Both the position numbers and the translations under genes were made by a program. Of a stretch of DNA of 32,000 nucleotides, positions 3,007-25,468 are shown one piece after another; the first letter of the stretch is position 1, and each line of letters opens with the position of its first letter. A model generated the notes under the pieces. The model ran no database searches. It was not told the origin of the DNA and saw only the letters and a program-made list of their open reading frames with translations. Origin of the DNA: Moraxella nasicaprae (GTDB lineage: Bacteria > Pseudomonadota > Gammaproteobacteria > Pseudomonadales > Moraxellaceae); the NCBI RefSeq assembly GCF_025643275.1, contig NZ_CP089977.1, positions 2,074,667 through 2,106,666 on the forward strand, in the 5' to 3' direction.

Positions 3007-3008
3007 CA

Positions 3009-4691: not shown

Positions 4692-4701
4692 GTAGGTCAA
4701 A

Positions 4702-5052: not shown

Positions 5053-5060
5053 GGGCGAGC

Positions 5061-7023: not shown

Positions 7024-7373
7024 ACCGCTCGCAATATTGCAATGACAGGGACGGCTCGTGGAATGTCAATTTTGACGGCTCACAAAATGCCACAGGTGCC
7101 TTAACGCTTGCAAACAGCGGTGTTACGGCAGGCTCTTATAACTCGGTTACAGTAGATGCCAAAGGACGAGTAACAGCAGGCTTAACCCAAACGCACGGAC
7201 TGGTAACCGCCACTACCGCACAAGGGACAGCCAATGTCGCCACAGGTAACGGCAACACCTTTCTTAACATTGTTGCAAGTGGCGTGGGTCAAACTGCGTC
7301 TGTTGGTTCATCCACCCAAATCACAGGTACAAATGGTATTACCGTCTCATCAGACACGGCTGGCAAGCTCATT
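7024..7373 (+). repeat. Tail-fibre internal direct repeat, copy 1 (about 350 bp)
   Basis: Aligns with 7908-8258 (offset 884, then 885 after the 1-nt gap) at high but imperfect identity. It encodes ARNIAMTG(D)GSWNVNFDGSQNATGALTLANSGVTAGSYNSVTVDAKGRVTAGLTQTHGLVTATTA...GVGQTASVGSSTQITGTNGI.VSSDTAGKLI. Confidence 0.8.
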
Positions 7374-7907
7374 TTAGGGCAAACACTTGCCAATAGTTTG
7401 ACTGATGCTTCTACCGCCAAGGCTTTGACCGCCTTACAAGGTAAGGTGCTTGATGAGAAGATTACGGCTGTCAATAACGCTTTGACAAGCCACCGCCATA
7501 ATTGGAATGAGATTGATAGCAAGCCCAGCACTTTTACGCCATCAAGCCATACACATACCATCGCTAATATTACCGATTATGATGTTAGGCAAATCAGTAC
7601 TGAAGATTTGGATAGCATTACCAAATGGGGTATTTATGGACAAGGGGCAAACAATCAATCACTGACTGAGAGAAATTATCCTGTACCTAATGAAGCTGGC
7701 ACATTGGAAGTTATGCCTGGCACTTACGGACTTCGCCAAAGATTTACTACATTTGCCACTCATCGTCAGTTTGAGCGCTCAAGAAACAATGCTCAAACAG
7801 GCTGGAATGCGTGGACGGAGCTATCAAACACATGGGACGCCATACGAGGCAAGCCAAATAACCTTGCTACCACCACAAGCAATGTCGCCTCTGCCACCAA
7901 GCTCCAA

Positions 7908-8258
7908 ACCGCCCGCAATATCGCAATGACTGGCGATGGCTCGTGGAATGTCAATTTTGACGGCTCACAAAATGCCACAGGTGCCTTAACGCTTGCAAAC
8001 AGTGGTGTTACGGCAGGCTCCTATAACTCAGTAACGGTGGACGCAAAAGGACGAGTTACCGCAGGCTTAACCCAAACGCACGGACTTGTAACCGCCACCA
8101 CCGCCACAGGGACAACCAACACCGCCACCACGAACACTAATACATTTCTAAACATTGTGGCAAGCGGCGTAGGTCAAACTGCGTCTGTTGGCTCAAGTAC
8201 GCAAATCACAGGCACAAACGGCATCAGCGTATCATCAGACACTGCTGGTAAGCTCATT
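7908..8258 (+). repeat. Tail-fibre internal direct repeat, copy 2
   Basis: See copy 1. This copy is in frame. Confidence 0.8.
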
Positions 8259-8680
8259 GTTACCCGTGATAGCAACTCGCCCACCGCCACCAAACTTGCC
8301 ACCGCCCGTAACATCGCCCTAACAGGAGCGGTAACTGGCAATGTCAATTTTGATGGGTCGGGGAATGTGAGTTTGGCAACAACTGTGCAATCCGTGAGTG
8401 GCAAAGTGGTTGTTATGACTGGTACTATCGAACATGGTGGCACCATTCCACTACCAGCAGGATTTAATGAAAATCAATGCAAGTGGATGGTTTCAATGAA
8501 TGATGACAATCCAACTCGAACAACATGGGATATTAACGAAGGAGGGTATCATTTACATTATCGCCAAGAATGCTTTACGGAAGGTCGTGTGGTAACAGCT
8601 AGGACTTATCTAGGTGGACATTCTGGCTCATCATCTGTTGTGAACAGTAAGGCTAACTACATCATCATTGGAGTGAAATA

Positions 8681-9259
8681 ATGTATTACATTTTTAATAA
8701 AGATGGTAAAAATATCGGTCAGTGCGACTTTGAGCCAAACGCAGAAGACTTAGCAAGTCGCCAAGAAAGCTATCAACTGTACAAAAATCCTTTACAACAA
8801 GGGGATGAAATTTGGCTTGTTGATGGAAAAATCACAATCATCAGCCCGGCTCAATTAACGACAGAAGAGCTTAAAGTCCAACACCAATCCCAAATCTGGG
8901 AAGCCATCAAACAAAAACGTCACACCATCACTCGTGGCGGGGTTTATGTCAAATCGGTCAAAAAGTGGTTTCATACCGATGATAGTTCTCGCACACAGTA
9001 TTTGGCATTGCAAATCTTGCCACAGCTACCGCCTGATTTAATGTGGAAAACGATGGATAACAGCTTTGTCAAATTGGATAAGGCGTTATTGACCGAGCTT
9101 GCGATGACGATTTTGACCGCCGAGCAAGCTGATTTTGCTAATGCTGAAAAGCACCGTTTGGCAATGTTACAGGCACAAAATCCCCTAGAATACGATTATT
9201 CAAAGGGTTGGACAGCCATTTATGACCCAACTGACAAACAAGGAGCAAGCGATGAATAA
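8681..9259 (+). CDS. Probable tail fibre assembly/chaperone protein
   Basis: 192 aa. The start overlaps the fibre stop (taATG), which is the gpG/Mu-U chaperone position. Assigned mainly by synteny. Confidence 0.5.
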   Translation: MYYIFNKDGKNIGQCDFEPNAEDLASRQESYQLYKNPLQQGDEIWLVDGKITIISPAQLTTEELKVQHQSQIWEAIKQKRHTITRGGVYVKSVKKWFHTDDSSRTQYLALQILPQLPPDLMWKTMDNSFVKLDKALLTELAMTILTAEQADFANAEKHRLAMLQAQNPLEYDYSKGWTAIYDPTDKQGASDE

Positions 9260-9707
9260 AGTCTATTTAGCTTGCTATCGTGGGCGTGGCGACAAATTGA
9301 CCCACCGCCTATGTGATGGCATTACCCGCTTTTTTACTCGTGGCAAATACAGCCACACCGAGATTGCCATCGCCTTGCCTGACGGTCGTTACCAATGCTA
9401 TTCATCAAGCGTGCGTGAAGGTGGTGTGCGTACCAAGATAATGCCCTTAAATCCTGACAAATGGGACTTAATCGCCCTTGGTGGCATTTCGCCCGAACAA
9501 ATTACCCGCTATTACCGACAAAATCACGGCTCGGATTATGACCTTTTGGGGGCGTTGGGCTGTGTGGCGGGACTACCACAGAACGCAGATAAATTCTTTT
9601 GTTCTGAGTGGTGCTACAACGCCATTTTTGGGTCAAATCAAGGCTTTCGGTTTAGCCCCAATCAGCTTGCCGAGATTGTTCGCCATTTATCCATTTTGGA
9701 TAACTAA
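9252..9707 (+). CDS. Hypothetical protein, possibly a permuted papain-like (YiiX/C92-type) cysteine hydrolase
   Basis: Start chosen at MNKVYLACYRG, preceded by AAGGAG. His (KYSHTEIAI) precedes Cys (KFFCSEWCY), the order seen in permuted NlpC/P60-like enzymes. This is a weak motif-level call. Confidence 0.35.
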   Translation: MNKVYLACYRGRGDKLTHRLCDGITRFFTRGKYSHTEIAIALPDGRYQCYSSSVREGGVRTKIMPLNPDKWDLIALGGISPEQITRYYRQNHGSDYDLLGALGCVAGLPQNADKFFCSEWCYNAIFGSNQGFRFSPNQLAEIVRHLSILDN

Positions 9708-9732
9708 TTTTGTTCTTATTTAGGAGAAATCA

Positions 9733-10254
9733 ATGCCAAATCCAAGTAACTACCCAACCCAAATCACGCCACATTTTAGCTATCGTGAGCTGACAAGAAG
9801 CGAAACTGCCAGACGGCATGGAGTTGCAAACATCCCAAGCCAAAGCGATCTTGCCAACATCACTTATACCGCTCATCAGCTTGAAAAGGTGCGTGCTTAT
9901 TTAAATGACAAATACCAAAAGCCCATCGCCATCATCGTAACTTCTTGCTTTCGTAGCGAAAGGGTTAATAAACTGGTTGGTGGTTCAAAAACTTCCGCTC
10001 ATCGCTTTGGACTGGCGGCGGATTGTGATGCTACAGGCTTTACATCAAGGGCATTTGCCAAAGAAATCATTGAGATGCGTGATAAGGGCTTGATTGCCTT
10101 TGATCAGCTGATTTTGGAATTTCCAGAAAGAGGTGATGGAGCATGGGTGCATTTGGGCTTTAAAAAAGACGGCAAAGGTCAAAGAAATCAAATCTTAACC
10201 GCCACCAAACGAAACGGCAAAACTGTGTATTTGCAAGGCTTGCAAGGAGGTTAA
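9733..10254 (+). CDS. Peptidase M15 family (D-Ala-D-Ala carboxypeptidase-like) peptidoglycan hydrolase, probable endolysin
   Basis: HFSYRELTRSETARRHGVANIP, the Zn ligand motif SAHRFGLAAD (Hx6D) and AWVHLGF. RBS taggag lies upstream. Confidence 0.8.
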   Translation: MPNPSNYPTQITPHFSYRELTRSETARRHGVANIPSQSDLANITYTAHQLEKVRAYLNDKYQKPIAIIVTSCFRSERVNKLVGGSKTSAHRFGLAADCDATGFTSRAFAKEIIEMRDKGLIAFDQLILEFPERGDGAWVHLGFKKDGKGQRNQILTATKRNGKTVYLQGLQGG

Positions 10255-10362
10255 GATGATTTAGATTAAACGATAAAAAAAGAAAAGACGGTCGGTATGA
10301 CGGTGTGCGACCACCGCCATACCAGCCACGCAGTGTGAGTGCGTAAGCCCAAAGAACCGCCT

Positions 10363-10374
10363 GCTTAGCTAAGC
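10363..10374. promoter_or_regulatory. Perfect 12-bp palindrome GCTTAGCTAAGC upstream of the com-like gene (candidate operator or terminator element)
   Basis: Seen directly. It lies 41 nt before ATG 10415 and is followed by a T-rich run (tgttatttta). An imperfect 16-bp stem (10290-10305 pairing with 10312-10327) lies just upstream. Confidence 0.3.
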
Positions 10375-10414
10375 GGTGTTATTTTACCACAAAATCCATA
10401 GGATTACGCAAAAA

Positions 10415-10609
10415 ATGAAACAGCGTTGCACAAATTGCAAAAAACTTTTAGCCATTGGCACGGGCAATTTTGCCATCAAATGCCCAAGATGCAAAACTTT
10501 AAATCAAATTAACACGCAAACCAAAGAATGCCACGAGCATCATAACCCTTTAAATAAGGAAACCTATGAATGCTCAAAACAACCCCCAACCAACCCAATC
10601 CACCCCTAA
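10415..10609 (+). CDS. com: Mu Com-like zinc-finger translational regulator
   Basis: MKQRCTNCKKLLAIGTGNFAIKCPRCKTLNQI has the same CxxC...KLL...I.CPRCK arrangement as phage Mu Com (MKSIRCKNCNKLLFKA...IEIRCPRCKRHII, recalled from memory). It sits at the prophage right end and its 3' end overlaps the next gene by 44 nt, as com does with mom. Confidence 0.75.
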   Translation: MKQRCTNCKKLLAIGTGNFAIKCPRCKTLNQINTQTKECHEHHNPLNKETYECSKQPPTNPIHP

Positions 10610-11443
10610 CCCCAAACAATACCCAAAATCAAAACCCAGTGTCGGCAGTCTCTTTGCTGGCATTGGCGGATTTGACTTGGGATTTGAAAACGCAGGTTTT
10701 TACACCAGCTGGCAAGTGGAAATTGACCCCATTTGCAAAGCGGTGTTATCAGACCGTTTCCCCCACGCCACCCAGTTTGACGATGTTAGAAACTGCTTGC
10801 CCAAAATCCAAGCCCTGCCAAATGGCGGAAGTGTCGATGTCATGTCTCCATGGCAGGCAAACGAGCAGGACTTCACGGACAGCGGACAGGCTTGTTCTTT
10901 GATGCTATCGGTATTATCCAAGCAATTAAGCCAAGATTTGTCGTGCTTGAAAATGTCACAGGTCTCATCAATTCCAACGATGGCAAAGACCTACAAACAG
11001 TCATTGAAACGCTTGCCCAATGCGGGTATGTGGGATTTTGGCGAGTGCTGGACAGCCGTTATTTCGGAGTCCCCCAAAAACGCCGTAGAGTATTCTTGGT
11101 TGCAGGTCTTGGAGAATACCCACCATTTAGCCTTATGGCTGACTTGGGGTCAGTGGAACGCATTTCTGGCAAGACTGAATCGCAATCGTGCTGGGCGGAC
11201 GCACACCATACGCTACTGGCAGGGGTCGGCTCATCCGCCATCAACATCAATTGTGCTGATATCATCGCTGTGCCAAATGGACGGCATCAGATGGCTGTCA
11301 GGGAGCGAACGACTGTCGATGATGGGCTTTGCAAAGGATTGGATGAGACCAACGCTTGTGAGGCTAGGACTGCGGGAAACGCCGTCTGTCCGCAAGTCGC
11401 ACAGTTTATCGCAAGCCACTTGATGACGTCTTTTAACCCATAA
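10566..11443 (+). pseudogene. DNA (cytosine-5) methyltransferase, disrupted by several frameshifts
   Basis: Motif I SLFAGIGGFDLGFENAGF is in frame 1. A PCQ triplet occurs only in frame 2 (10813-10821). AGKRAGLHGQRTGLF, ENVTGL and QKRRRVFLVAG are in frame 3. Motif IX ERLSMMGFAKDW is back in frame 1, and motif X GNAVCPQVAQFI is in frame 3. Confidence 0.65.
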
Positions 11444-11506
11444 TTGAACCAGCATTTCAACCATTTTGAGTGTCTTGAACGCCTTTAACTTTAAAAGGAT
11501 AAGTTT

Positions 11507-12373
11507 ATGACACTCAATTCACTTTCTAACAAACATTACAAAACCGCCCCTTTGCCATTTACAGGGCAAAAGCGAATGTTTTTAAGGCACTTTGAAAAAA
11601 TCTTAAAAGATAATGTCTCAAATGATGGAGAGGGCTTTACGGTGCTTGATGTCTTTGGCGGTTCTGGACTGCTTGCTCACAATGTCAAGCGTATCTTGCC
11701 CAAAGCCAACGTCATTTATAACGACTTTGACGGCTATGCTGAGCGTTTGGCTCATATTCCCACCACCAATCGCTTACGCCAAGAGCTGTTTGAAATCTTA
11801 AAAGACGAGCCAAGAAGTGCCAAATTATCAAACACCACCAAAGCCAAAGCCCTAGACCATATCCGTAAAAGTGCCGACAACGGGACTTTTGTTGATGTGC
11901 AAACCTTGGCAGGTTGGTTGTTGTTTAGCGGACGACAAGTGGGCAATCTTGATGAGTTTTTGGCAGAGTCCACCTTTTATAACCGTATTGTCAAAACTGA
12001 CTACGACACCGCAGATGGCTATCTGGAAGGTCTTATCATTGAATGCCTAGATTTTGAAAAGCTGTTACAAAAATACCAAGACACCCCAAATTGCTTGCTT
12101 CTGCTTGACCCGCCTTATGTTTGCACCGCACAGGGGGCGTATGCCAAGCACGGCTATTTTGGCATGACGAAGTTTTTACGGCTTATGCAGTTTGTGCGTC
12201 CACCCTTTATCTTTTTTAGCTCCACCAAAAGCGAGTTGATGGATTATATGGCTTATGTGGAGCAGTACGAGCCACCCACTTGGCAAAGGGTTGGGGGCTT
12301 TGAGCGGATTGTTGTCAATGCTCGCATTAACGCACAAATTGGCTATGAAGACAATATTTTGGTTAAGTTTTAA
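11507..12373 (+). CDS. N6-adenine DNA methyltransferase, Dam-like (D12 class); no adjacent restriction gene
   Basis: The AdoMet motif VLDVFGGSGLLAH precedes the catalytic LLLLDPPYV (alpha-group order). The ORF is an intact 288 aa with RBS aaaagga. Confidence 0.7.
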   Translation: MTLNSLSNKHYKTAPLPFTGQKRMFLRHFEKILKDNVSNDGEGFTVLDVFGGSGLLAHNVKRILPKANVIYNDFDGYAERLAHIPTTNRLRQELFEILKDEPRSAKLSNTTKAKALDHIRKSADNGTFVDVQTLAGWLLFSGRQVGNLDEFLAESTFYNRIVKTDYDTADGYLEGLIIECLDFEKLLQKYQDTPNCLLLLDPPYVCTAQGAYAKHGYFGMTKFLRLMQFVRPPFIFFSSTKSELMDYMAYVEQYEPPTWQRVGGFERIVVNARINAQIGYEDNILVKF

Positions 12374-12983: not shown

Positions 12984-15900
12984 TTATCTTGCACATAGTG
13001 CAACAAAACCAAAAAGATATTTATTGCATAAATAGGCGAGATTTTTCGCGGCGGGCATCATCATCTCCAATCTTCCTGTATTTATTAGGGCTGCCAATCT
13101 ATTTGCTTCTTCCTGATTGGCTTTTGGTGCATTTGCTCTAATTTTATTATAATAAGCCCCATTCCATCTCACCACCTCCTCAGCCATCTGCACTGCCATA
13201 TTCACATCTTCTTCTGCTAGGGCTGCTACTGTCCCTGCGATGAGTTTGGCTTGGTTGATGATACTTTGTCTTTGAGAGTCTGTTAGGGTAGTGGGGTCAT
13301 CTATTTGCCAATCTGCCCAGATTTCTGCCATACTAGCACCTAAGGCACCTGCTTGGCAAGTTGATCCTTGTGCTTTGGCAGATAGACAGCCTGTGAGTCC
13401 TGCGGCAAGTTTGTGGGCGATGTTGTTAATGTTGCCATCTGTATCAATGGGTTTAACCAAATGAGCAAAGGCTTGTTGATGTGATAGGGCAATCAGTTGA
13501 TTACCAAGATTGGTTTTTAGGTTGTCTTCTAAGTCTGTGCCATAGATGGCAGATTGTAGTAGGCTTTTTGAAGTACTTTGGGCAATGCCTTTGATGAATC
13601 TGTCATTAAGACTTAACTGGGTTTGGTCAATGCCTTGTATGTTTAGTCCTTTATCAATCTTATTGCTGATACCAGCACTGGCGATGGCAAAGGCAAGCTG
13701 TTTGGCATTGTCTTTATTGCCAAGCTGCTTGATGGCGGCTTTGATGTTGCCTTGATTATTGATTAGGCTGATGGTGGCTTGTTCGGCAAGGGTGCTAAGA
13801 GCGGTATTTGCCATCGCTGTCAGGGTATGACTGCCCAATAAAGTACCGTTAATCGGTGCAATACCGCCTGTTGCCATTCCCATGGCAATGGTTAAGATGG
13901 CAGCCCCTGCTGGAGTAAGACCTGCTTGCTGGTAGTTCCATTCTTTTTGAGTGAGAATAAGGGTCTGCCAGTCGATGTTGTTTTGCTGGATGAGCGAATT
14001 TAGATAGCTGTATTCGGGCTGTTTGGCAAGTTCAAGGATTTGTTCCTTGATGACTTTTCTTTGGACATCTTTTTCGCTGATAGGGATTTGTACCACAAGA
14101 CCGCCATCGGCAACAAAACTAGGCGGTGTACTACCTGTAAAGCTGGGTAAAACAGCTGTTTGAGTATATTGTCCTTTATCTTGCATTCGTTGCCAAAAGA
14201 CTTCATTGGCTTGTGAGGTGGTGCTTATATTGAGAGTGCTAATCGCTGGAAGTAGATGAACTTTGCCGCCTGCTTCAATATTTGCACCAGACAGATAGCT
14301 AAATATACTGCCTTGTAGGGTGGTGTCGCCAAGAGATTTGGTATTGATATAACGAGCGGTCAAAGAGGCGGGCAGGGCAGTAATTTGCAATTTGTGATGA
14401 TTGGTTGTTGCATTGCCTGCTTTAACGCCCAAGATGCGTCTTTTGACCTGAGTATCTTGATGATGCTCATGCACATCATTGACGCTAAATAGATTGATTG
14501 CACCTGTAGCAAAGACACTGATATTGCCTGTCGTACTCATTTTGGTGGCATAAAAGTCAGCATTACTTTGATGACCTTGAGCGGTTAATGAGATATGATG
14601 GGCAGCCAAAGAAGTCGGTAGGGCGGTGGAATACTCATCTTGGGTTTGAACATTGATGGTTTTGCGATTGAGTGCACTGCCTTTTTTGCTGCTACTTTCA
14701 TCGTAGCGATGGGTATAATTGATGGCATGGTCAACGAGTAAATGATGATTAGCAGCGATGGTTAGGTTAGACTTAGCATCAATGTTGCCAGCTTGTACAA
14801 CCAAATGGACTGGCTGCCCTGCTTGATTGGTCTTGGTGGCAGATAGGCTGACATTACTGGCTGTGATTTGACTTGGCACAAACAAAGCATGGTTGCGATA
14901 ATAAGAGGAGTTTTCCTTGCCCATTTCATAGATGTTGTGTGAGCCATCGACTAGGATGCTGGCGGTGATGTTTTGGTCGTTTTTGTGGTATTTGTCAGTT
15001 AATGTACCCTGTGCTTGCAAAGTGATGTTATTGGCAGCGGTCAAGTTCGATGAACGGATTAGAATGCCTTGAGCAGCATTCATGCTGATATTGTTTTGTG
15101 CTGTCAGGGTGGAGGGCTGATATTCTGTACCGATTGGATTTCTTTTCAAGTCAGCCAGTTGGTCAGTCAATCTTGATACATCAGCTTGCAAAGCCTCCTC
15201 TTTTGATTTGGCAGGCAAATGCTTAGATAATACCGATTCTAATTCGTTGATTTTGGCGTTGGTTTGGTTAATTAGTCGGTCATAGTCAGCCACAGTCTTT
15301 GGATCTGCCGGCGAAGTGGGTGATGCTGAACGAAATCTAATCCCTGATGGTGGGGGAGGCGGTGGGGGAGGTAAGAGAGTGTCGCCAAGCGATCTGCTGT
15401 TTTCTGGTAGAGATGGCGTGGCAGGATTGCTTAATGCCTGTCTTTGACTATGATGCAAAGCTAGCTGAAATTGCAGAGAATTAATCTGAGTCTGCAATTG
15501 TCGATAAGACTGATATGCGTCAGATTTTTGAAAGATTGCTAATGCTTGCTTGGCTTGTTTGAGCTGTTTTTCTATATTGTCAATCGTATGTATGGGCAAT
15601 GCTTGACCATCTAGGCGATTGCTTAGAGCATCAACCAGAACGGAGCCCTTCCCAGCATTTAGATGGATATTTTTACCTGTAATATTTGCCCCTTGTAAAA
15701 CAATCTCTTGTGCGGATATGGTCAAATTTCCTTTTGGAGTAAGTTGTGCTAATTGACCTGAGCCAATACCCTTAGTGCCTTCATGACCGATTAAATCAAT
15801 GTTGCCATTTTGGGACTGTAGCCATAAATCTCCATCAGCAGATAATTGATGTGTCTGAGGTCGAATGTGCAATGCTTGCTCGCTAATAATAGATAAGTCG

Positions 15901-17531
15901 CCACTTAGTGTCGTAGTTTGCGGATTTTTGGTTAACAGCTGTGTTTTGGTTGCATTAGCAAATAATTGACCCTGCGGCTTGATGGACAGCTTTTTGGTTT
16001 TTAATAAAATTGCACCAGCCGTCAGATTGGTCGATCCTGTAATCGTATGCAAACCAAGTGAAACGCTACTTAAGATACCCTTAGCACTTAAATTACCACC
16101 TATATTTTGATCGCCTGTGGTATAAAGCGTTAAATGATGATCGGCATTGGCAGTCGTGTTTTGCCAAACTAGGTCTTTTCTAGACTCAATAGAGATGTTT
16201 TTGTGTGCAGTTAAATTACTGTTAGTCAGCGTTTGATTTTGGTGTGTGTAGAGATTGATTGATCCATCTGCATTTAACTGGTTGTCAGTCATTTGTGCAC
16301 TGCCAGCTAATGATGCTACAGTGATGTTGCCTGTTGTACGAATACTACTTTTACCGATAGATAGAGCGTCTTTGGTAACTAACTGGACATTGCTGGCAGT
16401 CATATTGGACTGCTGTACGCTGAGCGTCTTGGCTTTGGTTTCAATGTTGCTGGCAGTTAAATTTGTTTGATGTAGATTAAGGGTGTTGTTTGTTGTTAAA
16501 AGGATGTCTCTCCCTCCTGTCACATTGCCTGCCAAAGTTTGATTGTTAGCATTTAGGTGGATATTGCCTTGTTTGGTGCTCATCACCCCTTGTGCCGACT
16601 GGTAAATATCTGTTTGGCTACTTAGTAGGATTTGATGATCTGCATGTATATTGCCTGTGTTTTTGATGTATCCATCACTACTGACATAGACTTGCTGAGC
16701 GGCGTTTAAGCTACCAGCATTATTGACACCAACGCCCTGATCGGTAACAATCAAACGAATATTGCCAGCATACATACCGCCAAGCTGACCTGTATCAATA
16801 GCAATGGTGGCAGCGGAAGATTTATTTGATGATGCTTGAACAGGAGTGGAAAGTCCATTGGTAATAATATTAGAGCCTGCAACAACATTAATACTATCAT
16901 TGGCATGGATTTTGCCATTTAATTCCACTGCTTTAGCATATAGATTAAGATAATTGGCTTGATGCCTATCGGACATACCTGTTTGACCGATATTAATTTT
17001 ACCAGCATTGATTTGATGGCTAATGTTGCCCTGCAAATGACTAACCGTGCCAGTTGTTAATGTTGCCTCATTTGTGTTAATAAACCCAGCACCAGAAACT
17101 ACAATTCCTGACGGGTTGGCAATGATAACATTGGCTGTTTGTCCAGCAACCTCAATAATACCAGCAATATTGGTGGCTTTACTACTGTTAATTTCATTGA
17201 TGATGGTATGGGCAGAACCTTGTTGTAAAAAAGGATTACCCTCAATCTGATTGGCAAGCTGTGTCTGTGTACTACCACGAGCATTGTTTAGCACGACACC
17301 TATGTCATTAACATTGAACCTTTCGTATTGATTATGAGATATGCCATTAACAGGTGTGCGAATCTGTACCACAGGAACAGCTTGTCCATTAGTATGAGTT
17401 CCTGCAAGAATAATGGGTTTTTTATTAGAATCTGCTTTTGGATCGCTGATAACTTGGGCAATGCTTGATGTTGAAATTGATAAAAGAATGGCAGAAATGG
17501 CAATATTCAAAGATGATTTTGAAAATAGCAT
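12984..17531 (-). CDS. cdiA: CdiA/filamentous-haemagglutinin-type TPS exoprotein, toxin-less truncated copy (1457 shared codons plus a 58-aa tail)
   Basis: Identical to the 1779-aa copy through VVRWN. It then reads GAYYNKIRAN...GRLEMMMPAAKNLAYLCNKYLFGFVALCAR*. The last 25 or so codons lie in the putative prophage end. Confidence 0.85.
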   Translation of the reverse strand: MLFSKSSLNIAISAILLSISTSSIAQVISDPKADSNKKPIILAGTHTNGQAVPVVQIRTPVNGISHNQYERFNVNDIGVVLNNARGSTQTQLANQIEGNPFLQQGSAHTIINEINSSKATNIAGIIEVAGQTANVIIANPSGIVVSGAGFINTNEATLTTGTVSHLQGNISHQINAGKINIGQTGMSDRHQANYLNLYAKAVELNGKIHANDSINVVAGSNIITNGLSTPVQASSNKSSAATIAIDTGQLGGMYAGNIRLIVTDQGVGVNNAGSLNAAQQVYVSSDGYIKNTGNIHADHQILLSSQTDIYQSAQGVMSTKQGNIHLNANNQTLAGNVTGGRDILLTTNNTLNLHQTNLTASNIETKAKTLSVQQSNMTASNVQLVTKDALSIGKSSIRTTGNITVASLAGSAQMTDNQLNADGSINLYTHQNQTLTNSNLTAHKNISIESRKDLVWQNTTANADHHLTLYTTGDQNIGGNLSAKGILSSVSLGLHTITGSTNLTAGAILLKTKKLSIKPQGQLFANATKTQLLTKNPQTTTLSGDLSIISEQALHIRPQTHQLSADGDLWLQSQNGNIDLIGHEGTKGIGSGQLAQLTPKGNLTISAQEIVLQGANITGKNIHLNAGKGSVLVDALSNRLDGQALPIHTIDNIEKQLKQAKQALAIFQKSDAYQSYRQLQTQINSLQFQLALHHSQRQALSNPATPSLPENSRSLGDTLLPPPPPPPPSGIRFRSASPTSPADPKTVADYDRLINQTNAKINELESVLSKHLPAKSKEEALQADVSRLTDQLADLKRNPIGTEYQPSTLTAQNNISMNAAQGILIRSSNLTAANNITLQAQGTLTDKYHKNDQNITASILVDGSHNIYEMGKENSSYYRNHALFVPSQITASNVSLSATKTNQAGQPVHLVVQAGNIDAKSNLTIAANHHLLVDHAINYTHRYDESSSKKGSALNRKTINVQTQDEYSTALPTSLAAHHISLTAQGHQSNADFYATKMSTTGNISVFATGAINLFSVNDVHEHHQDTQVKRRILGVKAGNATTNHHKLQITALPASLTARYINTKSLGDTTLQGSIFSYLSGANIEAGGKVHLLPAISTLNISTTSQANEVFWQRMQDKGQYTQTAVLPSFTGSTPPSFVADGGLVVQIPISEKDVQRKVIKEQILELAKQPEYSYLNSLIQQNNIDWQTLILTQKEWNYQQAGLTPAGAAILTIAMGMATGGIAPINGTLLGSHTLTAMANTALSTLAEQATISLINNQGNIKAAIKQLGNKDNAKQLAFAIASAGISNKIDKGLNIQGIDQTQLSLNDRFIKGIAQSTSKSLLQSAIYGTDLEDNLKTNLGNQLIALSHQQAFAHLVKPIDTDGNINNIAHKLAAGLTGCLSAKAQGSTCQAGALGASMAEIWADWQIDDPTTLTDSQRQSIINQAKLIAGTVAALAEEDVNMAVQMAEEVVRWNGAYYNKIRANAPKANQEEANRLAALINTGRLEMMMPAAKNLAYLCNKYLFGFVALCAR

Positions 17532-17673
17532 TTTAACTTCCTTGTAAAATTGTCAGCTCCTTCTTAGATTTAGTGAAAGTTTAGCAAATACCAAAAAATA
17601 GTTCAAGTCGGAATTGGTATGATTTTTGAGGAAATTTAATCACGGGTTGGTGTGTATGAATACCTTATTTAAC
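13171..17673 (-). repeat. 4503-bp perfect direct repeat, copy A (cdiA promoter, 5'UTR and codons 1 to about 1454)
   Basis: Offset 7795 to copy B. Every stretch I compared is identical and all six-frame ORFs match in both copies. Identity ends at 17673/17674 on one side. On the other side, mismatches appear at 13170 and 13167. Confidence 0.9.
17578..17606 (-). promoter_or_regulatory. Candidate sigma70 promoter of cdiA copy A
   Basis: The - strand reads TTGAAC, a 17-nt spacer (tattttttggtatttgc), then TAAACT, about 45 nt upstream of the ATG. SD AAGGAAG lies 5 nt before the ATG. Confidence 0.5.
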
Positions 17674-18142
17674 TAATCTTTTATGTAACGAACTTCAAAA
17701 TTATAATAATATTAAAAATCAATTATTAACTAATTTCTTTGATTTTTGAGTTCATAAACAAGCATTTTGTTCGTCTTATTATGCCACATCTTATAGATAT
17801 TATAAGTCTTTTGCTTGCAGAAATGCCAAGACAAGACTGCGAAAAAATTAAAAAAATGAGAGTTTGGTTCCCACAAGAACGGGAGAGGAGCGGTGTTCTT
17901 ATGTGTCATGTAAAGCAGACTATCTGTGCAATACAGCCTAAAACAAGGCATGGAGCATCCGCTAAAACTGATGGCACGCACCACCTTTATCCCATGGATG
18001 GATGACATCTGGGATCGGGGTATGTACGAAAGACAGAGTGCTGATTATTACTGGCAAGGTTATAAAGATTTGTGCTTTAGAGTGCAGGCGTATGTCAATG
18101 AGAATCCCAAGCTAAGAGACATGTATCCCTAAACCGCTTTAT

Positions 18143-18178
18143 CAAGAATAAAAAACCACCATCGAAAAGATGGTGGTT
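18143..18178 (-). terminator. Rho-independent terminator ending the cdiA-immunity operon
   Basis: Stem aaccaccatc (18154-18163) pairs with gatggtggtt (18169-18178) around the loop gaaaa. On the - strand it is followed by ttttttatt. It lies 50 nt after the stop at 18228. Confidence 0.75.
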
Positions 18179-18227: not shown

Positions 18228-19094
18228 CTATAACTTACTAGCCCAAGGACCAAAATCAAACCTAGAATAATCCTCTCCAACTTGTGAAAATACATGTAAG
18301 AAATATTCATCTAGCATCTCTTGTGGGTTATTGATTTCATAAATTCCATTAATAAAGTCGCCATCTTTTACCCAAAACATACGATGGTCATAATAGTAAC
18401 ACATGAGTATTAAATCATATTCTTTTGGGTCTTCATCAGGCTTACAGCAATCTATCATAACCCTTAGATTGGGAAAACCATCTGTACGATATTTTTCTTG
18501 TTTTTCAATACCTTCAATTTCAATATCAATAAAAGCATAGGGAATTTTTTTAACCAAACTTTCAATTGCTTGCTTGGCTTTTTTGCGTGAGTTGGGTAAG
18601 TAAATATCAAATGGTTTCCAACAGCTATATGGGTCTCCGATTAGCATGGTTCCCCCTTGAATATACCTAACACTATCAGATAGTAACACGCCACCAAATG
18701 CCTTTAACCAACCATCTTTTAAATAGTTTGGTAGCCAATGGTAATAATCTTCACTAGGGTCAGTTAAAAAATAAATTCTTTGGTTTAACTCAAAAAATGT
18801 TGATAAAGATAAATTTAACTCAATTAATTCATACCAATAAACTGTTAATTGGCAATTTAATTGGAAATCATTTAAATATTGATAGGTTTTTGGATAATGG
18901 GCTTGTAATGATAATATGGATTTGTGAATATCCAATCCTAACTGTCTGATTTGTTCATCATAAATCCACTTATAATCACTGTTATTGATATAATCCATTT
19001 CTTTGTGCTTCATATCAGAGACAAAATCTGCAACATACTCAACAATTTTATTTGACATATTTTGCTCAAGTTTGTCTTTTGTATAGATAGGCAT
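18228..19094 (-). CDS. Hypothetical protein, second immunity-position ORF (paralogue of 19130..19990)
   Basis: The ORF is open from 19106. The second ATG (19094, MPIYTK) has GGAG 6 nt upstream. It is AT-rich. It shares PKTYQ.L and the C-terminal I..(I/L)NNPQE..D.Y..H.FS....(D/R)FDF.P with the upstream ORF. Confidence 0.7.
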   Translation of the reverse strand: MPIYTKDKLEQNMSNKIVEYVADFVSDMKHKEMDYINNSDYKWIYDEQIRQLGLDIHKSILSLQAHYPKTYQYLNDFQLNCQLTVYWYELIELNLSLSTFFELNQRIYFLTDPSEDYYHWLPNYLKDGWLKAFGGVLLSDSVRYIQGGTMLIGDPYSCWKPFDIYLPNSRKKAKQAIESLVKKIPYAFIDIEIEGIEKQEKYRTDGFPNLRVMIDCCKPDEDPKEYDLILMCYYYDHRMFWVKDGDFINGIYEINNPQEMLDEYFLHVFSQVGEDYSRFDFGPWASKL

Positions 19095-19129
19095 AGTTTT
19101 CTCCATAAAAACATATCTAATTCTATAAT

Positions 19130-19990
19130 CTAAAAATCCACCATATATGGAGTAAAATCAAAGTCGCCATCTTGACCCGAAAAAATATGGGCTGCGTAAC
19201 TATCAATGGCTTCTTGTGGATTATTCAATCTTTTTATGCTAAATACATCAGCATTTTGGATAATATAGATATTTTCTCCCTGATCAATAGATGAGCAAAA
19301 TAATTGGAAACCAGTGTTGCTATAGTCGTCCATAGTTCGTGTATCTAATAGATTTCTTAACTCAAAATAATCATTTCTATTATCCCCTGTATACTGATCG
19401 TCATCATAATCTCTCACGATGCGATGATTAAACTTAGCATCTAAAAAATCACAATATTTATCTCTATTTTGTCTAGTTTCAAAATTATCTATAATAGAGT
19501 GAATTGGACTTTGTAAAGTTGTTGGCAGACGGCTTTTAAAAGGACTAGTAACTGTGTCTTCTGCAATATGCCACGCATCTGTGTGGAGTATCCAAGAGCG
19601 AAGAACAAAAACTGGTAAATTTTTGTAAAAAATACTATCAGGATCTTGTTCGTAGCAAGGAATTGATGGATATGATAAATAAAAACATTGATGATTAACA
19701 ATTATACCAAATTGAGTAATATCTCCCATAATTTCTGGATAAGGTGATTTTTCTACAGCATAGAAGAACTCTGCTTTTAAAAGCAGCTGATAGGTTTTGG
19801 GTTGAAGGCTTTCAAAGGGTTGGACTAAATATTCCTTTAAATCGCCTTTTGAAATAAAATGGTAGCCATCATATTTTCTTTCATTGCATTTTAAACTTAG
19901 TTCCATAAATGGAATATCATCAAAATCATTTTGATAAAAGACTTTATCACAACTTTCCTCTAACTGAGTTTTAGTCAAAAATAGTTTCAT
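19130..19990 (-). CDS. Putative CdiI-type immunity protein for the HNH toxin (family unrecognised)
   Basis: 286 aa. The start overlaps the cdiA stop as ATGA (19987-19990), with GGAG inside the last cdiA codons, indicating translational coupling. This is the canonical immunity position. Confidence 0.65.
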   Translation of the reverse strand: MKLFLTKTQLEESCDKVFYQNDFDDIPFMELSLKCNERKYDGYHFISKGDLKEYLVQPFESLQPKTYQLLLKAEFFYAVEKSPYPEIMGDITQFGIIVNHQCFYLSYPSIPCYEQDPDSIFYKNLPVFVLRSWILHTDAWHIAEDTVTSPFKSRLPTTLQSPIHSIIDNFETRQNRDKYCDFLDAKFNHRIVRDYDDDQYTGDNRNDYFELRNLLDTRTMDDYSNTGFQLFCSSIDQGENIYIIQNADVFSIKRLNNPQEAIDSYAAHIFSGQDGDFDFTPYMVDF

Positions 19991-22900
19991 GATTTTTTTC
20001 TCCGCTTAAATAATTCTTGATGAACTTTTTCGGTTGCATCTTTGAGTATCTGCTGCTGTTGCCTTAACAAATATGCTCTATATTTAGGAGATATTTCTTT
20101 ATTCCCCTTAACATATTTAACCCATCCATCAGTACCTGTTTCAATCTTAGAACCCTTAGAAGAGTTAAGATGTTTAGGTAGTGGCTGTAAATTAGAAGGA
20201 TTATTTATGAGCTTTTCTTGTACATCTTTTGGCAAATCATTAAAGCCTGGAATTTTTTTAAATTCCGCTCTGGGGAGAATATGATCAAAAGATGCTACAG
20301 CGTCATCGGGAAAGAATTTTTTGGTATTTGTAAAAGGATCCAAATACATTACCTTGCCAGTTTTAGCATCTACCCAATCACCTTTGATTAAAATCTCGGC
20401 AGCATTACCATATTTGTTGCCAAAATCACAACAATTCGCATTATGCACCCACACACCCAATCTGCCCACATGATAGGTGTGAAAGTCATCCACTTCGATA
20501 TTATAGACAGTGTCGGTGTGGTTGGGTAGTAGGTATTGGCTTATAACTTCTACTTCTTGATTGTTTCTATCAAGTAGTATCATGCCTTGTTCTAGTAAAG
20601 ACGCTTTTAGCCAGCCTGTATCTTTAATCCAAAATGGGTGTTCAGCTGTGGTTTCTAAGGTTTCAATTTGACCTTGATGGTTTTTGACCGTTACTTGGAA
20701 AATGGGTTGGTCAGGTGTTGCTTTGGTGGCAATGACAGGACGATAGCCGTATTCTAGGGTAATGTCATTTCTTGTCCAAATCAGTTCACCACCTGTGAAG
20801 GTTTCGATGGTTTTCAAGCCTTCTGATGTTTCAATCAGGGTTCCTGCGGTAAAGCAAACGGTGCCTTTCTTGCACAGTTTAGAGATGCTATTGATAATAG
20901 CGGCACTAGCACCAGCACCAAAACCACCACCCAATCTATTTAAACTGGTGGTTGCATTCCACCTAACCACCTCCTCAGCCATCTGCACTGCCATATTCAC
21001 ATCTTCTTCTGCTAGGGCTGCTACTGTCCCTGCGATGAGTTTGGCTTGGTTGATGATACTTTGTCTTTGAGAGTCTGTTAGGGTAGTGGGGTCATCTATT
21101 TGCCAATCTGCCCAGATTTCTGCCATACTAGCACCTAAGGCACCTGCTTGGCAAGTTGATCCTTGTGCTTTGGCAGATAGACAGCCTGTGAGTCCTGCGG
21201 CAAGTTTGTGGGCGATGTTGTTAATGTTGCCATCTGTATCAATGGGTTTAACCAAATGAGCAAAGGCTTGTTGATGTGATAGGGCAATCAGTTGATTACC
21301 AAGATTGGTTTTTAGGTTGTCTTCTAAGTCTGTGCCATAGATGGCAGATTGTAGTAGGCTTTTTGAAGTACTTTGGGCAATGCCTTTGATGAATCTGTCA
21401 TTAAGACTTAACTGGGTTTGGTCAATGCCTTGTATGTTTAGTCCTTTATCAATCTTATTGCTGATACCAGCACTGGCGATGGCAAAGGCAAGCTGTTTGG
21501 CATTGTCTTTATTGCCAAGCTGCTTGATGGCGGCTTTGATGTTGCCTTGATTATTGATTAGGCTGATGGTGGCTTGTTCGGCAAGGGTGCTAAGAGCGGT
21601 ATTTGCCATCGCTGTCAGGGTATGACTGCCCAATAAAGTACCGTTAATCGGTGCAATACCGCCTGTTGCCATTCCCATGGCAATGGTTAAGATGGCAGCC
21701 CCTGCTGGAGTAAGACCTGCTTGCTGGTAGTTCCATTCTTTTTGAGTGAGAATAAGGGTCTGCCAGTCGATGTTGTTTTGCTGGATGAGCGAATTTAGAT
21801 AGCTGTATTCGGGCTGTTTGGCAAGTTCAAGGATTTGTTCCTTGATGACTTTTCTTTGGACATCTTTTTCGCTGATAGGGATTTGTACCACAAGACCGCC
21901 ATCGGCAACAAAACTAGGCGGTGTACTACCTGTAAAGCTGGGTAAAACAGCTGTTTGAGTATATTGTCCTTTATCTTGCATTCGTTGCCAAAAGACTTCA
22001 TTGGCTTGTGAGGTGGTGCTTATATTGAGAGTGCTAATCGCTGGAAGTAGATGAACTTTGCCGCCTGCTTCAATATTTGCACCAGACAGATAGCTAAATA
22101 TACTGCCTTGTAGGGTGGTGTCGCCAAGAGATTTGGTATTGATATAACGAGCGGTCAAAGAGGCGGGCAGGGCAGTAATTTGCAATTTGTGATGATTGGT
22201 TGTTGCATTGCCTGCTTTAACGCCCAAGATGCGTCTTTTGACCTGAGTATCTTGATGATGCTCATGCACATCATTGACGCTAAATAGATTGATTGCACCT
22301 GTAGCAAAGACACTGATATTGCCTGTCGTACTCATTTTGGTGGCATAAAAGTCAGCATTACTTTGATGACCTTGAGCGGTTAATGAGATATGATGGGCAG
22401 CCAAAGAAGTCGGTAGGGCGGTGGAATACTCATCTTGGGTTTGAACATTGATGGTTTTGCGATTGAGTGCACTGCCTTTTTTGCTGCTACTTTCATCGTA
22501 GCGATGGGTATAATTGATGGCATGGTCAACGAGTAAATGATGATTAGCAGCGATGGTTAGGTTAGACTTAGCATCAATGTTGCCAGCTTGTACAACCAAA
22601 TGGACTGGCTGCCCTGCTTGATTGGTCTTGGTGGCAGATAGGCTGACATTACTGGCTGTGATTTGACTTGGCACAAACAAAGCATGGTTGCGATAATAAG
22701 AGGAGTTTTCCTTGCCCATTTCATAGATGTTGTGTGAGCCATCGACTAGGATGCTGGCGGTGATGTTTTGGTCGTTTTTGTGGTATTTGTCAGTTAATGT
22801 ACCCTGTGCTTGCAAAGTGATGTTATTGGCAGCGGTCAAGTTCGATGAACGGATTAGAATGCCTTGAGCAGCATTCATGCTGATATTGTTTTGTGCTGTC

Positions 22901-25326
22901 AGGGTGGAGGGCTGATATTCTGTACCGATTGGATTTCTTTTCAAGTCAGCCAGTTGGTCAGTCAATCTTGATACATCAGCTTGCAAAGCCTCCTCTTTTG
23001 ATTTGGCAGGCAAATGCTTAGATAATACCGATTCTAATTCGTTGATTTTGGCGTTGGTTTGGTTAATTAGTCGGTCATAGTCAGCCACAGTCTTTGGATC
23101 TGCCGGCGAAGTGGGTGATGCTGAACGAAATCTAATCCCTGATGGTGGGGGAGGCGGTGGGGGAGGTAAGAGAGTGTCGCCAAGCGATCTGCTGTTTTCT
23201 GGTAGAGATGGCGTGGCAGGATTGCTTAATGCCTGTCTTTGACTATGATGCAAAGCTAGCTGAAATTGCAGAGAATTAATCTGAGTCTGCAATTGTCGAT
23301 AAGACTGATATGCGTCAGATTTTTGAAAGATTGCTAATGCTTGCTTGGCTTGTTTGAGCTGTTTTTCTATATTGTCAATCGTATGTATGGGCAATGCTTG
23401 ACCATCTAGGCGATTGCTTAGAGCATCAACCAGAACGGAGCCCTTCCCAGCATTTAGATGGATATTTTTACCTGTAATATTTGCCCCTTGTAAAACAATC
23501 TCTTGTGCGGATATGGTCAAATTTCCTTTTGGAGTAAGTTGTGCTAATTGACCTGAGCCAATACCCTTAGTGCCTTCATGACCGATTAAATCAATGTTGC
23601 CATTTTGGGACTGTAGCCATAAATCTCCATCAGCAGATAATTGATGTGTCTGAGGTCGAATGTGCAATGCTTGCTCGCTAATAATAGATAAGTCGCCACT
23701 TAGTGTCGTAGTTTGCGGATTTTTGGTTAACAGCTGTGTTTTGGTTGCATTAGCAAATAATTGACCCTGCGGCTTGATGGACAGCTTTTTGGTTTTTAAT
23801 AAAATTGCACCAGCCGTCAGATTGGTCGATCCTGTAATCGTATGCAAACCAAGTGAAACGCTACTTAAGATACCCTTAGCACTTAAATTACCACCTATAT
23901 TTTGATCGCCTGTGGTATAAAGCGTTAAATGATGATCGGCATTGGCAGTCGTGTTTTGCCAAACTAGGTCTTTTCTAGACTCAATAGAGATGTTTTTGTG
24001 TGCAGTTAAATTACTGTTAGTCAGCGTTTGATTTTGGTGTGTGTAGAGATTGATTGATCCATCTGCATTTAACTGGTTGTCAGTCATTTGTGCACTGCCA
24101 GCTAATGATGCTACAGTGATGTTGCCTGTTGTACGAATACTACTTTTACCGATAGATAGAGCGTCTTTGGTAACTAACTGGACATTGCTGGCAGTCATAT
24201 TGGACTGCTGTACGCTGAGCGTCTTGGCTTTGGTTTCAATGTTGCTGGCAGTTAAATTTGTTTGATGTAGATTAAGGGTGTTGTTTGTTGTTAAAAGGAT
24301 GTCTCTCCCTCCTGTCACATTGCCTGCCAAAGTTTGATTGTTAGCATTTAGGTGGATATTGCCTTGTTTGGTGCTCATCACCCCTTGTGCCGACTGGTAA
24401 ATATCTGTTTGGCTACTTAGTAGGATTTGATGATCTGCATGTATATTGCCTGTGTTTTTGATGTATCCATCACTACTGACATAGACTTGCTGAGCGGCGT
24501 TTAAGCTACCAGCATTATTGACACCAACGCCCTGATCGGTAACAATCAAACGAATATTGCCAGCATACATACCGCCAAGCTGACCTGTATCAATAGCAAT
24601 GGTGGCAGCGGAAGATTTATTTGATGATGCTTGAACAGGAGTGGAAAGTCCATTGGTAATAATATTAGAGCCTGCAACAACATTAATACTATCATTGGCA
24701 TGGATTTTGCCATTTAATTCCACTGCTTTAGCATATAGATTAAGATAATTGGCTTGATGCCTATCGGACATACCTGTTTGACCGATATTAATTTTACCAG
24801 CATTGATTTGATGGCTAATGTTGCCCTGCAAATGACTAACCGTGCCAGTTGTTAATGTTGCCTCATTTGTGTTAATAAACCCAGCACCAGAAACTACAAT
24901 TCCTGACGGGTTGGCAATGATAACATTGGCTGTTTGTCCAGCAACCTCAATAATACCAGCAATATTGGTGGCTTTACTACTGTTAATTTCATTGATGATG
25001 GTATGGGCAGAACCTTGTTGTAAAAAAGGATTACCCTCAATCTGATTGGCAAGCTGTGTCTGTGTACTACCACGAGCATTGTTTAGCACGACACCTATGT
25101 CATTAACATTGAACCTTTCGTATTGATTATGAGATATGCCATTAACAGGTGTGCGAATCTGTACCACAGGAACAGCTTGTCCATTAGTATGAGTTCCTGC
25201 AAGAATAATGGGTTTTTTATTAGAATCTGCTTTTGGATCGCTGATAACTTGGGCAATGCTTGATGTTGAAATTGATAAAAGAATGGCAGAAATGGCAATA
25301 TTCAAAGATGATTTTGAAAATAGCAT
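19987..25326 (-). CDS. cdiA: CdiA-type contact-dependent inhibition toxin / filamentous haemagglutinin-family TPS exoprotein with a HINT-HNH C-terminus
   Basis: 1779 aa. Sec signal MLFSKSSLNIAISAILLSISTSSIAQ. TPS domain motifs VPVVQIRTP..GISHNQYERFNV, GNPFL and IIANPSGI match FhaB NPNL/NPNGI. Long FHA-type repeats, a P8 tract, and a pretoxin region ending in VVRWN. Confidence 0.9.
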   Translation of the reverse strand: MLFSKSSLNIAISAILLSISTSSIAQVISDPKADSNKKPIILAGTHTNGQAVPVVQIRTPVNGISHNQYERFNVNDIGVVLNNARGSTQTQLANQIEGNPFLQQGSAHTIINEINSSKATNIAGIIEVAGQTANVIIANPSGIVVSGAGFINTNEATLTTGTVSHLQGNISHQINAGKINIGQTGMSDRHQANYLNLYAKAVELNGKIHANDSINVVAGSNIITNGLSTPVQASSNKSSAATIAIDTGQLGGMYAGNIRLIVTDQGVGVNNAGSLNAAQQVYVSSDGYIKNTGNIHADHQILLSSQTDIYQSAQGVMSTKQGNIHLNANNQTLAGNVTGGRDILLTTNNTLNLHQTNLTASNIETKAKTLSVQQSNMTASNVQLVTKDALSIGKSSIRTTGNITVASLAGSAQMTDNQLNADGSINLYTHQNQTLTNSNLTAHKNISIESRKDLVWQNTTANADHHLTLYTTGDQNIGGNLSAKGILSSVSLGLHTITGSTNLTAGAILLKTKKLSIKPQGQLFANATKTQLLTKNPQTTTLSGDLSIISEQALHIRPQTHQLSADGDLWLQSQNGNIDLIGHEGTKGIGSGQLAQLTPKGNLTISAQEIVLQGANITGKNIHLNAGKGSVLVDALSNRLDGQALPIHTIDNIEKQLKQAKQALAIFQKSDAYQSYRQLQTQINSLQFQLALHHSQRQALSNPATPSLPENSRSLGDTLLPPPPPPPPSGIRFRSASPTSPADPKTVADYDRLINQTNAKINELESVLSKHLPAKSKEEALQADVSRLTDQLADLKRNPIGTEYQPSTLTAQNNISMNAAQGILIRSSNLTAANNITLQAQGTLTDKYHKNDQNITASILVDGSHNIYEMGKENSSYYRNHALFVPSQITASNVSLSATKTNQAGQPVHLVVQAGNIDAKSNLTIAANHHLLVDHAINYTHRYDESSSKKGSALNRKTINVQTQDEYSTALPTSLAAHHISLTAQGHQSNADFYATKMSTTGNISVFATGAINLFSVNDVHEHHQDTQVKRRILGVKAGNATTNHHKLQITALPASLTARYINTKSLGDTTLQGSIFSYLSGANIEAGGKVHLLPAISTLNISTTSQANEVFWQRMQDKGQYTQTAVLPSFTGSTPPSFVADGGLVVQIPISEKDVQRKVIKEQILELAKQPEYSYLNSLIQQNNIDWQTLILTQKEWNYQQAGLTPAGAAILTIAMGMATGGIAPINGTLLGSHTLTAMANTALSTLAEQATISLINNQGNIKAAIKQLGNKDNAKQLAFAIASAGISNKIDKGLNIQGIDQTQLSLNDRFIKGIAQSTSKSLLQSAIYGTDLEDNLKTNLGNQLIALSHQQAFAHLVKPIDTDGNINNIAHKLAAGLTGCLSAKAQGSTCQAGALGASMAEIWADWQIDDPTTLTDSQRQSIINQAKLIAGTVAALAEEDVNMAVQMAEEVVRWNATTSLNRLGGGFGAGASAAIINSISKLCKKGTVCFTAGTLIETSEGLKTIETFTGGELIWTRNDITLEYGYRPVIATKATPDQPIFQVTVKNHQGQIETLETTAEHPFWIKDTGWLKASLLEQGMILLDRNNQEVEVISQYLLPNHTDTVYNIEVDDFHTYHVGRLGVWVHNANCCDFGNKYGNAAEILIKGDWVDAKTGKVMYLDPFTNTKKFFPDDAVASFDHILPRAEFKKIPGFNDLPKDVQEKLINNPSNLQPLPKHLNSSKGSKIETGTDGWVKYVKGNKEISPKYRAYLLRQQQQILKDATEKVHQELFKRRKKS
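19990..20439 (-). other. C-terminal toxin domain of CdiA: cysteine-less HNH-type nuclease (aa 1630-1779)
   Basis: SFDHILPRAEF...NPSNLQPLPKHLNSSKG matches the classic HNH pattern DHI.P...NLQ.L....N..K. Confidence 0.65.
20440..20856 (-). other. HINT (pretoxin-HINT / bacterial intein-like) domain of CdiA, aa 1491-1629
   Basis: CFTAGTLIET (Cys1), TAEHPFW (TxxH block B) and VYNIEVDDFHTYHVG..GVWVHN (terminal HN), followed by ANCC. Confidence 0.75.
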
Positions 25327-25468
25327 TTTAACTTCCTTGTAAAATTGTCAGCTCCTTCTTAGATTTAGTGAAAGTTTAGCAAATACCAAAAAATAGTTCA
25401 AGTCGGAATTGGTATGATTTTTGAGGAAATTTAATCACGGGTTGGTGTGTATGAATACCTTATTTAAC
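20966..25468 (-). repeat. 4503-bp perfect direct repeat, copy B
   Basis: See copy A (offset 7795). Confidence 0.9.
25373..25401 (-). promoter_or_regulatory. Candidate sigma70 promoter of full-length cdiA
   Basis: Identical to 17578-17606: TTGAAC, 17-nt spacer, TAAACT. Confidence 0.5.

Follow-up and report, generated by a model that had tools for sequence, protein, structure and literature searches.

We analysed a 32-kb stretch of the complete genome of Moraxella nasicaprae (hereafter the window, in whose positions all coordinates are given), in which the contact-dependent growth inhibition (CDI) gene cdiA-1 is followed by two tandem open reading frames (ORFs), ORF1 and ORF2, whose products are predicted to be immunity proteins of a previously unnamed family (Table 1). 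The cdiA-1 product possesses the two-partner secretion (TPS) domain and the VENN/DUF637 pretoxin boundary by which CDI proteins are recognized (Pfam matches: TPS 1.7e-40, DUF637 6.8e-21, PT-VENN 2.6e-6, PT-HINT 7.8e-25), and terminates in a swappable toxin domain, here termed type A, which was also found as an orphan cassette in Moraxella bovoculi and on other carriers. ORF1 is located directly 3' of the toxin end, an adjacency that is kept in at least 10 loci, and its ATG (19990-19988) overlaps the TGA of cdiA (19989-19987) as ATGA. For ORF2, the first in-frame ATG at 19106 would yield a protein of 292 residues (18228-19106); homologues and the NCBI annotation place the start at ATG 19094 (MPIYTKDKL...), resulting in a spacer of 35 nt to ORF1. 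Both proteins are identical to the RefSeq entries listed in Table 1, each of which is labelled 'hypothetical protein' by NCBI.

Table 1. Features of the cdiA-1 operon and of cdiA-2, by position in the window.
Feature	Positions	Strand	Length	Description
cdiA-1	19987..25326	-	1779 aa	TPS secretion domain, DUF637, PT-VENN-like boundary (..VVRWN), PT-HINT, C-terminal toxin
Pretoxin HINT domain of cdiA-1	20437..20838	-		Residues 1497-1630; Pfam
Toxin type A, end of cdiA-1	19987..20427	-		His-Me-finger (HNH/EndoVII) nuclease-like domain
ORF1 ribosome-binding site	20000..20003	-		GGAG within the final cdiA codons, 9 nt ahead of ATG
ORF1	19130..19990	-	286 aa	WP_263076373.1; predicted CdiI-A, the immunity protein cognate to toxin type A
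ORF2 ribosome-binding site	19101..19104	-		GGAG, 6 nt ahead of ATG 19094
ORF2	18228..19094	-	288 aa	WP_263076372.1; predicted orphan paralogous immunity protein (type B)
Intrinsic terminator	18144..18178	-		10-bp stem and T run; closes the cdiA-cdiI(A)-cdiI(B) operon
cdiA-2	12984-17531		1515 aa	Sequence departs from cdiA-1 immediately after VVRWN and ends in a 60-aa tail; hairpin next, no immunity gene

The operon is closed by the sole strong terminator-like site, whose stem includes five G-C pairs (18178-18154, followed by the T run) and folds at -15.8 kcal/mol (z = -4.0), with none of 200 shuffled sequences folding equally well. The G+C content falls to 0.30-0.32 over positions 18501-20000, across the two ORFs, compared with 0.40-0.46 in the cdiA core. 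These features bear out a preliminary description of the locus, made by reading the DNA without database searches, which had reported two tandem, AT-rich ORFs behind cdiA, the first overlapping cdiA as ATGA with a GGAG inside the cdiA end and the second following after 35 nt, and a terminator that closes the operon. Both ORFs are intact.

The toxin domain and its relation to known CDI systems

The C-terminus of CdiA-1 comprises about 145 residues after the PT-HINT domain and contains ..DHILP..NLQPLPKHLNSSKGSKIE..GW..., with the type-A motif DH..NL.P..N.SK..E..GW. In an alignment of ten toxin domains from different loci, the invariant residues were W20, P33, D50, H51, N81, L82, P84, N90, S92, K93, E98, G103 and W104. 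Eight of these ten domains matched the Pfam family GmrSD_C (DUF1524 His-Me-finger nuclease; best E 8.6e-7) and three matched HNH_4, with the window toxin itself matching GmrSD_C at E 6.4e-4 to 8.1e-4 (19.7-20.1 bits, the cut-off being 23 bits). The best match among PDB sequences was the DUF1524 end of 7p9k (E 0.065). A second toxin type, B, identified next to relatives of ORF2 in other Moraxella genomes (see below), is 38% identical to type A (E 2e-23) and has the same catalytic core.

Among described polymorphic toxins, Tox-DHNNK adopts the HNH/EndoVII fold with the motif DH, N, N, N, K and is often accompanied by HINT pretoxin domains; its listed immunity families are Imm-SUKH, Imm-SuFu and Imm33, and type V secretion (T5SS) is not among its listed delivery routes (PMC3482391). 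The window toxin resembles both Tox-DHNNK and GmrSD_C in its invariant DH, N, N and K (D50, H51, N81, N90, K93) and HNH-like spacing, a likeness to Tox-DHNNK checked by motif only, and differs from the former in its delivery by CdiA, a T5SS protein, and in its association with an unnamed immunity family. These features suggest that toxin A is a His-Me-finger nuclease-like domain related to GmrSD_C/DUF1524 and similar to DHNNK toxins, with a putative nuclease activity, and are in keeping with the HNH-type toxin that had been proposed in the preliminary description.

The overall layout corresponds to that of CdiA-CT/CdiI systems (CT, carboxy-terminal toxin region), for which orphan toxin/immunity modules have been described (Poole et al. 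2011, PMC3150448): shared features are the TPS domain, the VENN-type boundary, a polymorphic CT and a coupled immunity gene directly downstream, as well as orphan cassettes in sister species whose opening stretch matches the main gene exactly. Indeed, the final ~60 residues of the cdiA-1 HINT domain also open orphan toxin cassettes in other Moraxella. Points of difference are the immunity proteins of about 285 residues, which belong to no named CdiI family, and a second gene that would represent an orphan immunity gene lacking even a toxin remnant. Furthermore, the cdiB (ShlB/POTRA transporter) gene expected next to cdiA was not found among the ORFs of the 32-kb window, and may lie elsewhere in the M. 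nasicaprae genome. In M. bovoculi, cdiB is positioned at the far end of an array of orphan cassettes, on the opposite strand (L001, 13795-15837; L-numbers denote the comparison loci retrieved in this study).

Two distant paralogues of a family of about 285 residues

A direct BLASTP comparison of ORF1 and ORF2 aligned the C-terminal 57 residues alone (37% identity, E 1e-6). When relatives of ORF1 (n = 10) and of ORF2 (n = 19) were aligned and the resulting profiles compared, hhalign matched the two families end to end over 250 columns (probability 96.6%, E 5.7e-10). The joint alignment is colinear, contains 15 invariant columns and features the invariant or near-invariant motifs PKT, F..N, LP..L..W, LP, LR..D and D.Y..H.F...FDF. 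By these profile comparisons, ORF1 and ORF2 are full-length paralogues with about 20% identity. The distant paralogy proposed in the preliminary description thus exceeds chance, and the islands of similarity on which it had been based (PKTYQ, FYL..PS and the tail NNPQE..D.Y..H.FS...FDF.P) are present in both proteins. Both genes are under purifying selection, with dN/dS values of 0.29 for ORF1 and 0.13-0.27 for ORF2 (six orthologues), compared with 0.22 for the toxin.

From a profile search of 1.84 billion cluster representatives, we retrieved 149 proteins at E <= 1e-3, of which 63 reached E <= 1e-10, defining a family of ~149 clusters at 50% identity whose members are mostly 270-330 residues long; a further protein search with a 76-member profile added one more usable distant member. 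Neither ORF matched any model in scans of the Pfam, NCBIfam and PADLOC libraries. When 76 full-length members (both ORFs and 74 relatives) were compared with Pfam, no match was obtained at E <= 0.01 and none recurred at E <= 5. Searches of PDB sequences with single sequences and with the family profile likewise returned chance-level matches only. The family that the preliminary description had been unable to name therefore stays without a match for all 76 members, and no well-known unrelated family emerged from Pfam, NCBIfam, PADLOC or PDB sequences. Among the PDB matches was a non-significant phmmer alignment of ORF1 residues 158-254 with chains of the colicin E7 nuclease domain (E 0.13-0.7), which is probably compositional noise, albeit a curious one for a predicted binder of an HNH-type nuclease.

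Two AlphaFold2 (AF2) models, generated from shallow family alignments, reached confidence (pLDDT) values of 62 and 50. Foldseek comparison with the PDB gave a best E of 0.5, which, at a model pLDDT of 62, constitutes a weak structural test. A relationship with SUKH (SMI1/KNR4) immunity proteins, of which the C-terminal pattern had seemed only loosely reminiscent, was also considered. In common with these proteins, the family has a mixed alpha+beta composition as modelled, a central motif containing LP and an association with HNH-fold toxins. Unlike SUKH proteins, however, the family showed no match by sequence, profile or structure: none of the 76 members matched SMI1_KNR4/SUKH profiles even at E <= 5, and when the family was compared with one SUKH protein in hhalign, the probability was 0.15%. 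A single SUKH domain is also only about half as long as the family members, in which a comparison of N- and C-terminal halves found no internal duplication. The SUKH resemblance thus received no support in these weak tests and remains a lead rather than a finding. Similarly, no match to the SUFU (PF05076) or DUF2185 profiles, representing Imm-SuFu and Imm33, was found among the 76 members.

Several family members were found to carry C-terminal extensions, comprising Sel1 repeats (P0034, P0042 and P0032), DUF1963 (P0086) or stretches of 130-320 residues without a Pfam match (P0101, P0060, P0143, P0142, P0119 and P0171). These proteins may represent polyimmunity-type fusions or multi-domain immunity architectures.

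Association of ORF1- and ORF2-type genes with distinct toxins

Comparison loci were gathered by exact-protein look-ups and by a scan of a genome collection (22-member alignment), and were annotated with hidden Markov models (HMMs) of the two immunity subfamilies and of the toxin. Genes of the ORF1 type were identified directly 3' of a type-A toxin in the window, in M. bovoculi (L001, L002 and L004), Haemophilus (L008, L014 and L016), Pelistega suis (L010), a metagenome-assembled genome (MAG; L018) and L007. In the three M. bovoculi loci the pair forms an orphan cassette, its toxin sharing 80% identity with that of the window, and in three further loci (L009, L015 and L017) the ORF1-type gene is preceded by toxin fragments. 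In all of these loci outside Moraxella, each module contains one family member, and ORF2-type genes are absent. At L007 (GCA_002754915.1, 2-2915), the type-A toxin ends a low-complexity, N/S/K-rich protein that is not CdiA and is followed by an ORF1-type gene with an overlap of 8 nt; the occurrence of the same toxin type on this carrier suggests that the toxin-immunity cassette moves between delivery scaffolds. A reversed order was observed at L019 (3-2732), from a MAG labelled Porphyromonas sp., where the ORF1-type gene comes first and precedes a protein of at least 642 residues ending in a type-A toxin. The remaining matches are all from Proteobacteria, and the label of L019 may reflect a binning error or lateral transfer of the cassette.

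Genes of the ORF2 type were associated with toxin B. In M. oculi (L023), a HINT end followed by the type-B CT (CT-B) at 4094-4756 is succeeded 15 nt later by an ORF2-type gene beginning MPIYTKDKL at 4772; this cassette opens with a stretch identical to the window cdiA (..LKASLLEQGMILLDRNNQEV..GVWVHNANCCD), after which the divergent toxin B follows. Toxin B was also identified ahead of ORF2-type genes in M. marmotae (L024), as a remnant, and in two sets of metagenome contigs: in L030 as a fragment, and in L031-L034, where L031/32/34 encode a toxin of at least 511 residues with HINT and CT-B. The distant members P0045 and P0157 are likewise encoded directly 3' of toxins with the same motif. Two further ORF2-type genes, in M. 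porci (L022, 6374-7330) and an uncultured Moraxella (L029, 8001-8858), are solitary copies that follow CoA-transferase and thiolase genes, a long way from any toxin gene. This housekeeping neighbourhood is common to two Moraxella lineages, and the genes represent orphan immunity genes that have become fixed in it; such stand-alone copies are as expected of an orphan immunity gene. With regard to whether homologues always follow HINT-HNH toxins, a question raised in the preliminary description, many do lie directly 3' of a toxin, but the copies in L022 and L029 do not. Within the window, the toxin HMM matched cdiA-1 only, and toxin B is not present; ORF2 is therefore a paralogue without its predicted cognate toxin alongside, that toxin occurring elsewhere, and it is intact and maintained by selection rather than decaying.

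Across 11 modules, pairwise identities of toxins and of their immunity proteins were strongly correlated (r = 0.90, Mantel p about 2e-4). Given that ORF1-type genes follow toxin A, and that ORF2-type genes follow toxin B or stand alone, we consider it probable that ORF1 is the cognate CdiI for toxin A and ORF2 an orphan immunity protein against the related toxin B, the two forming a minimal case of homogeneous polyimmunity within a previously unnamed family of ~285 residues that co-diversifies with a His-Me-finger toxin domain. The locus would accordingly be organized as a CDI operon, cdiA - cdiI(A) - cdiI(B), in which ORF1, through translational coupling to cdiA, would bind toxin A and block it both in the cell that makes it and in that cell's siblings. 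ORF2 would be co-transcribed, its own partner being the toxin B encoded upstream of ORF2-type genes in other Moraxella, and could be retained as protection against type-B toxins delivered by neighbouring Moraxella strains. This would conform with the proposal that polyimmunity genes serve as a backup against non-kin toxins (PMC3482391).

Several observations weigh against this assignment. Binding and protection by ORF1 and ORF2 are predictions, and the weak AF2 models did not permit assignment of a fold. The proteins are larger than most CdiI proteins and approximately double the toxin domain in size, and the window toxin lies just under the GmrSD_C gathering cut-off. The correlation between toxin and immunity divergence partly reflects simple linkage within mobile cassettes. 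Furthermore, ORF1 and ORF2 remain paired in several contigs resembling M. bovoculi (L001-L006), such that cooperation between the two proteins is possible.

This last observation bears on the other possibility entertained in the preliminary description, a two-component system in which both proteins are jointly needed against the cdiA-1 toxin, for example as a heterodimer. Although the genes are adjacent, co-oriented and co-transcribed, are conserved together in the window as well as in these contigs, and are both under purifying selection, we consider such a system very unlikely: outside the M. bovoculi/M. nasicaprae group each toxin type is accompanied by a single family member, with Haemophilus, Aggregatibacter, Pelistega and other loci encoding one ORF1-type protein after a type-A toxin, and ORF2-type genes occurring singly after toxin B or wholly alone. 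Of the two possibilities, it is thus the cognate and orphan pair that is upheld by toxin adjacency. ORF2 might instead neutralise toxin A as well, or many variants, providing a second layer of self-protection and not a reserve against foreign toxins, as could be envisaged from the catalytic core and 38% identity that toxins A and B have in common and from the C-terminal motif common to both immunity types. The immunity types themselves are merely about 17-20% identical, however, and their divergence tracks toxin type, which is the usual signature of specific pairs; together with the absence of ORF2-type genes from type-A modules outside the M. bovoculi/M. nasicaprae clade, this renders cross-protection improbable. 

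The lack of an assignable immunity family or fold, and a size unusual for CdiI, could also indicate that the family has some other toxin-linked role (chaperone, activator or export helper) or an unrelated function. This seems highly improbable, given that its place directly 3' of the toxin holds across scaffolds as different as CdiA, a short protein of 187 residues and the N/S/K-rich carrier, and that orphan cassettes, stand-alone orphan copies and co-divergence with the toxin are hallmarks of immunity genes. A more far-reaching possibility, under which the family would constitute an undescribed immunity superfamily, perhaps of a new fold, that acts specifically on DUF1524/DHNNK-like His-Me-finger toxins, with ORF1 and ORF2 cooperating in the M. 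bovoculi/M. nasicaprae clade (e.g. as a heteromer widening the range of toxin variants neutralised) and ORF2 not simply kept as a spare, is speculative and appears unlikely.

Loci in which distantly related immunity paralogues are arranged in tandem have been described before and termed homogeneous polyimmunity (Zhang et al. 2011/2012, PMC3113570, PMC3482391). The present pair resembles it in comprising tandem distant paralogues on one message, and differs in that there are two genes only, which form part of the toxin operon instead of a separate array, and in that the family is not SUKH, Imm6, 11, 28, 33, 36 or 41. Hence the CDI operon, the orphan immunity gene and polyimmunity are of a known kind, and the understanding of CDI and polymorphic toxin systems is unchanged by our results; the novelty lies in an unnamed immunity family of ~285 residues that accompanies a DUF1524/DHNNK-like toxin and divides clearly into types A and B. 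These findings provide a function prediction for a family so far annotated as 'hypothetical protein' that occurs in commensals and pathogens of the airways and eyes (Moraxella, Haemophilus, Aggregatibacter and Pelistega), and link it to one nuclease-like toxin domain for which both CDI and other carriers serve as delivery routes. With toxins that are 38% identical and immunity proteins that are about 20% identical, types A and B form a clean natural pair for studying the evolution of what is predicted to be type-specific recognition, and toxin-less ORF2 copies illustrate the stockpiling of immunity against the weapons of neighbours.

Long arrays of orphan cassettes were also observed downstream of cdiA in M. 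bovoculi (L001, CP011377, 5919-13798) and in L023, L024 and L030. These contain PT-HINT fragments together with Imm49, Imm42-like, SMI1_KNR4-like and Ntox21 fragments and many small ORFs without a family, and hold more unannotated toxin-immunity pairs.

Other features of the window

A perfect direct repeat of 4.5 kb (13171-17673 and 20966-25468, no mismatches) spans the promoter and 5' region of cdiA together with its first ~1455 codons, the second copy being cdiA-2; the two differences within 13160-17531 fall at 13167 and 13170, just left of the repeat. The cdiA-2 copy appears to stem from a duplication event in the recent past or from an unequal crossover at the boundary where toxins are swapped, or its CT may be truncated. 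Between the operon terminator and the cdiA-2 promoter, the plus strand contains two overlapping ORF fragments of 88 and 68 residues (17739-18132; e.g. ..IPWMDDIWDRGMYERQSADYYWQGYKDLCFRVQAYVNENPKLRDMYP) without a Pfam match, which may be a gene remnant.

On its other side, cdiA-1 is divergent from yajC-secD-secF, and the other neighbours are prophage genes. Positions 1-12373 hold a P2/Mu-like prophage tail and baseplate module that abuts the truncated cdiA-2, comprising GpU, GpD, gpV with an Apex motif, Baseplate_J, a DUF4376 tail-fibre part and an M15 peptidase. These are followed by two DNA methyltransferases, a C5 enzyme at 10566-11423 and a D12-class N6 enzyme at 11507-12373.

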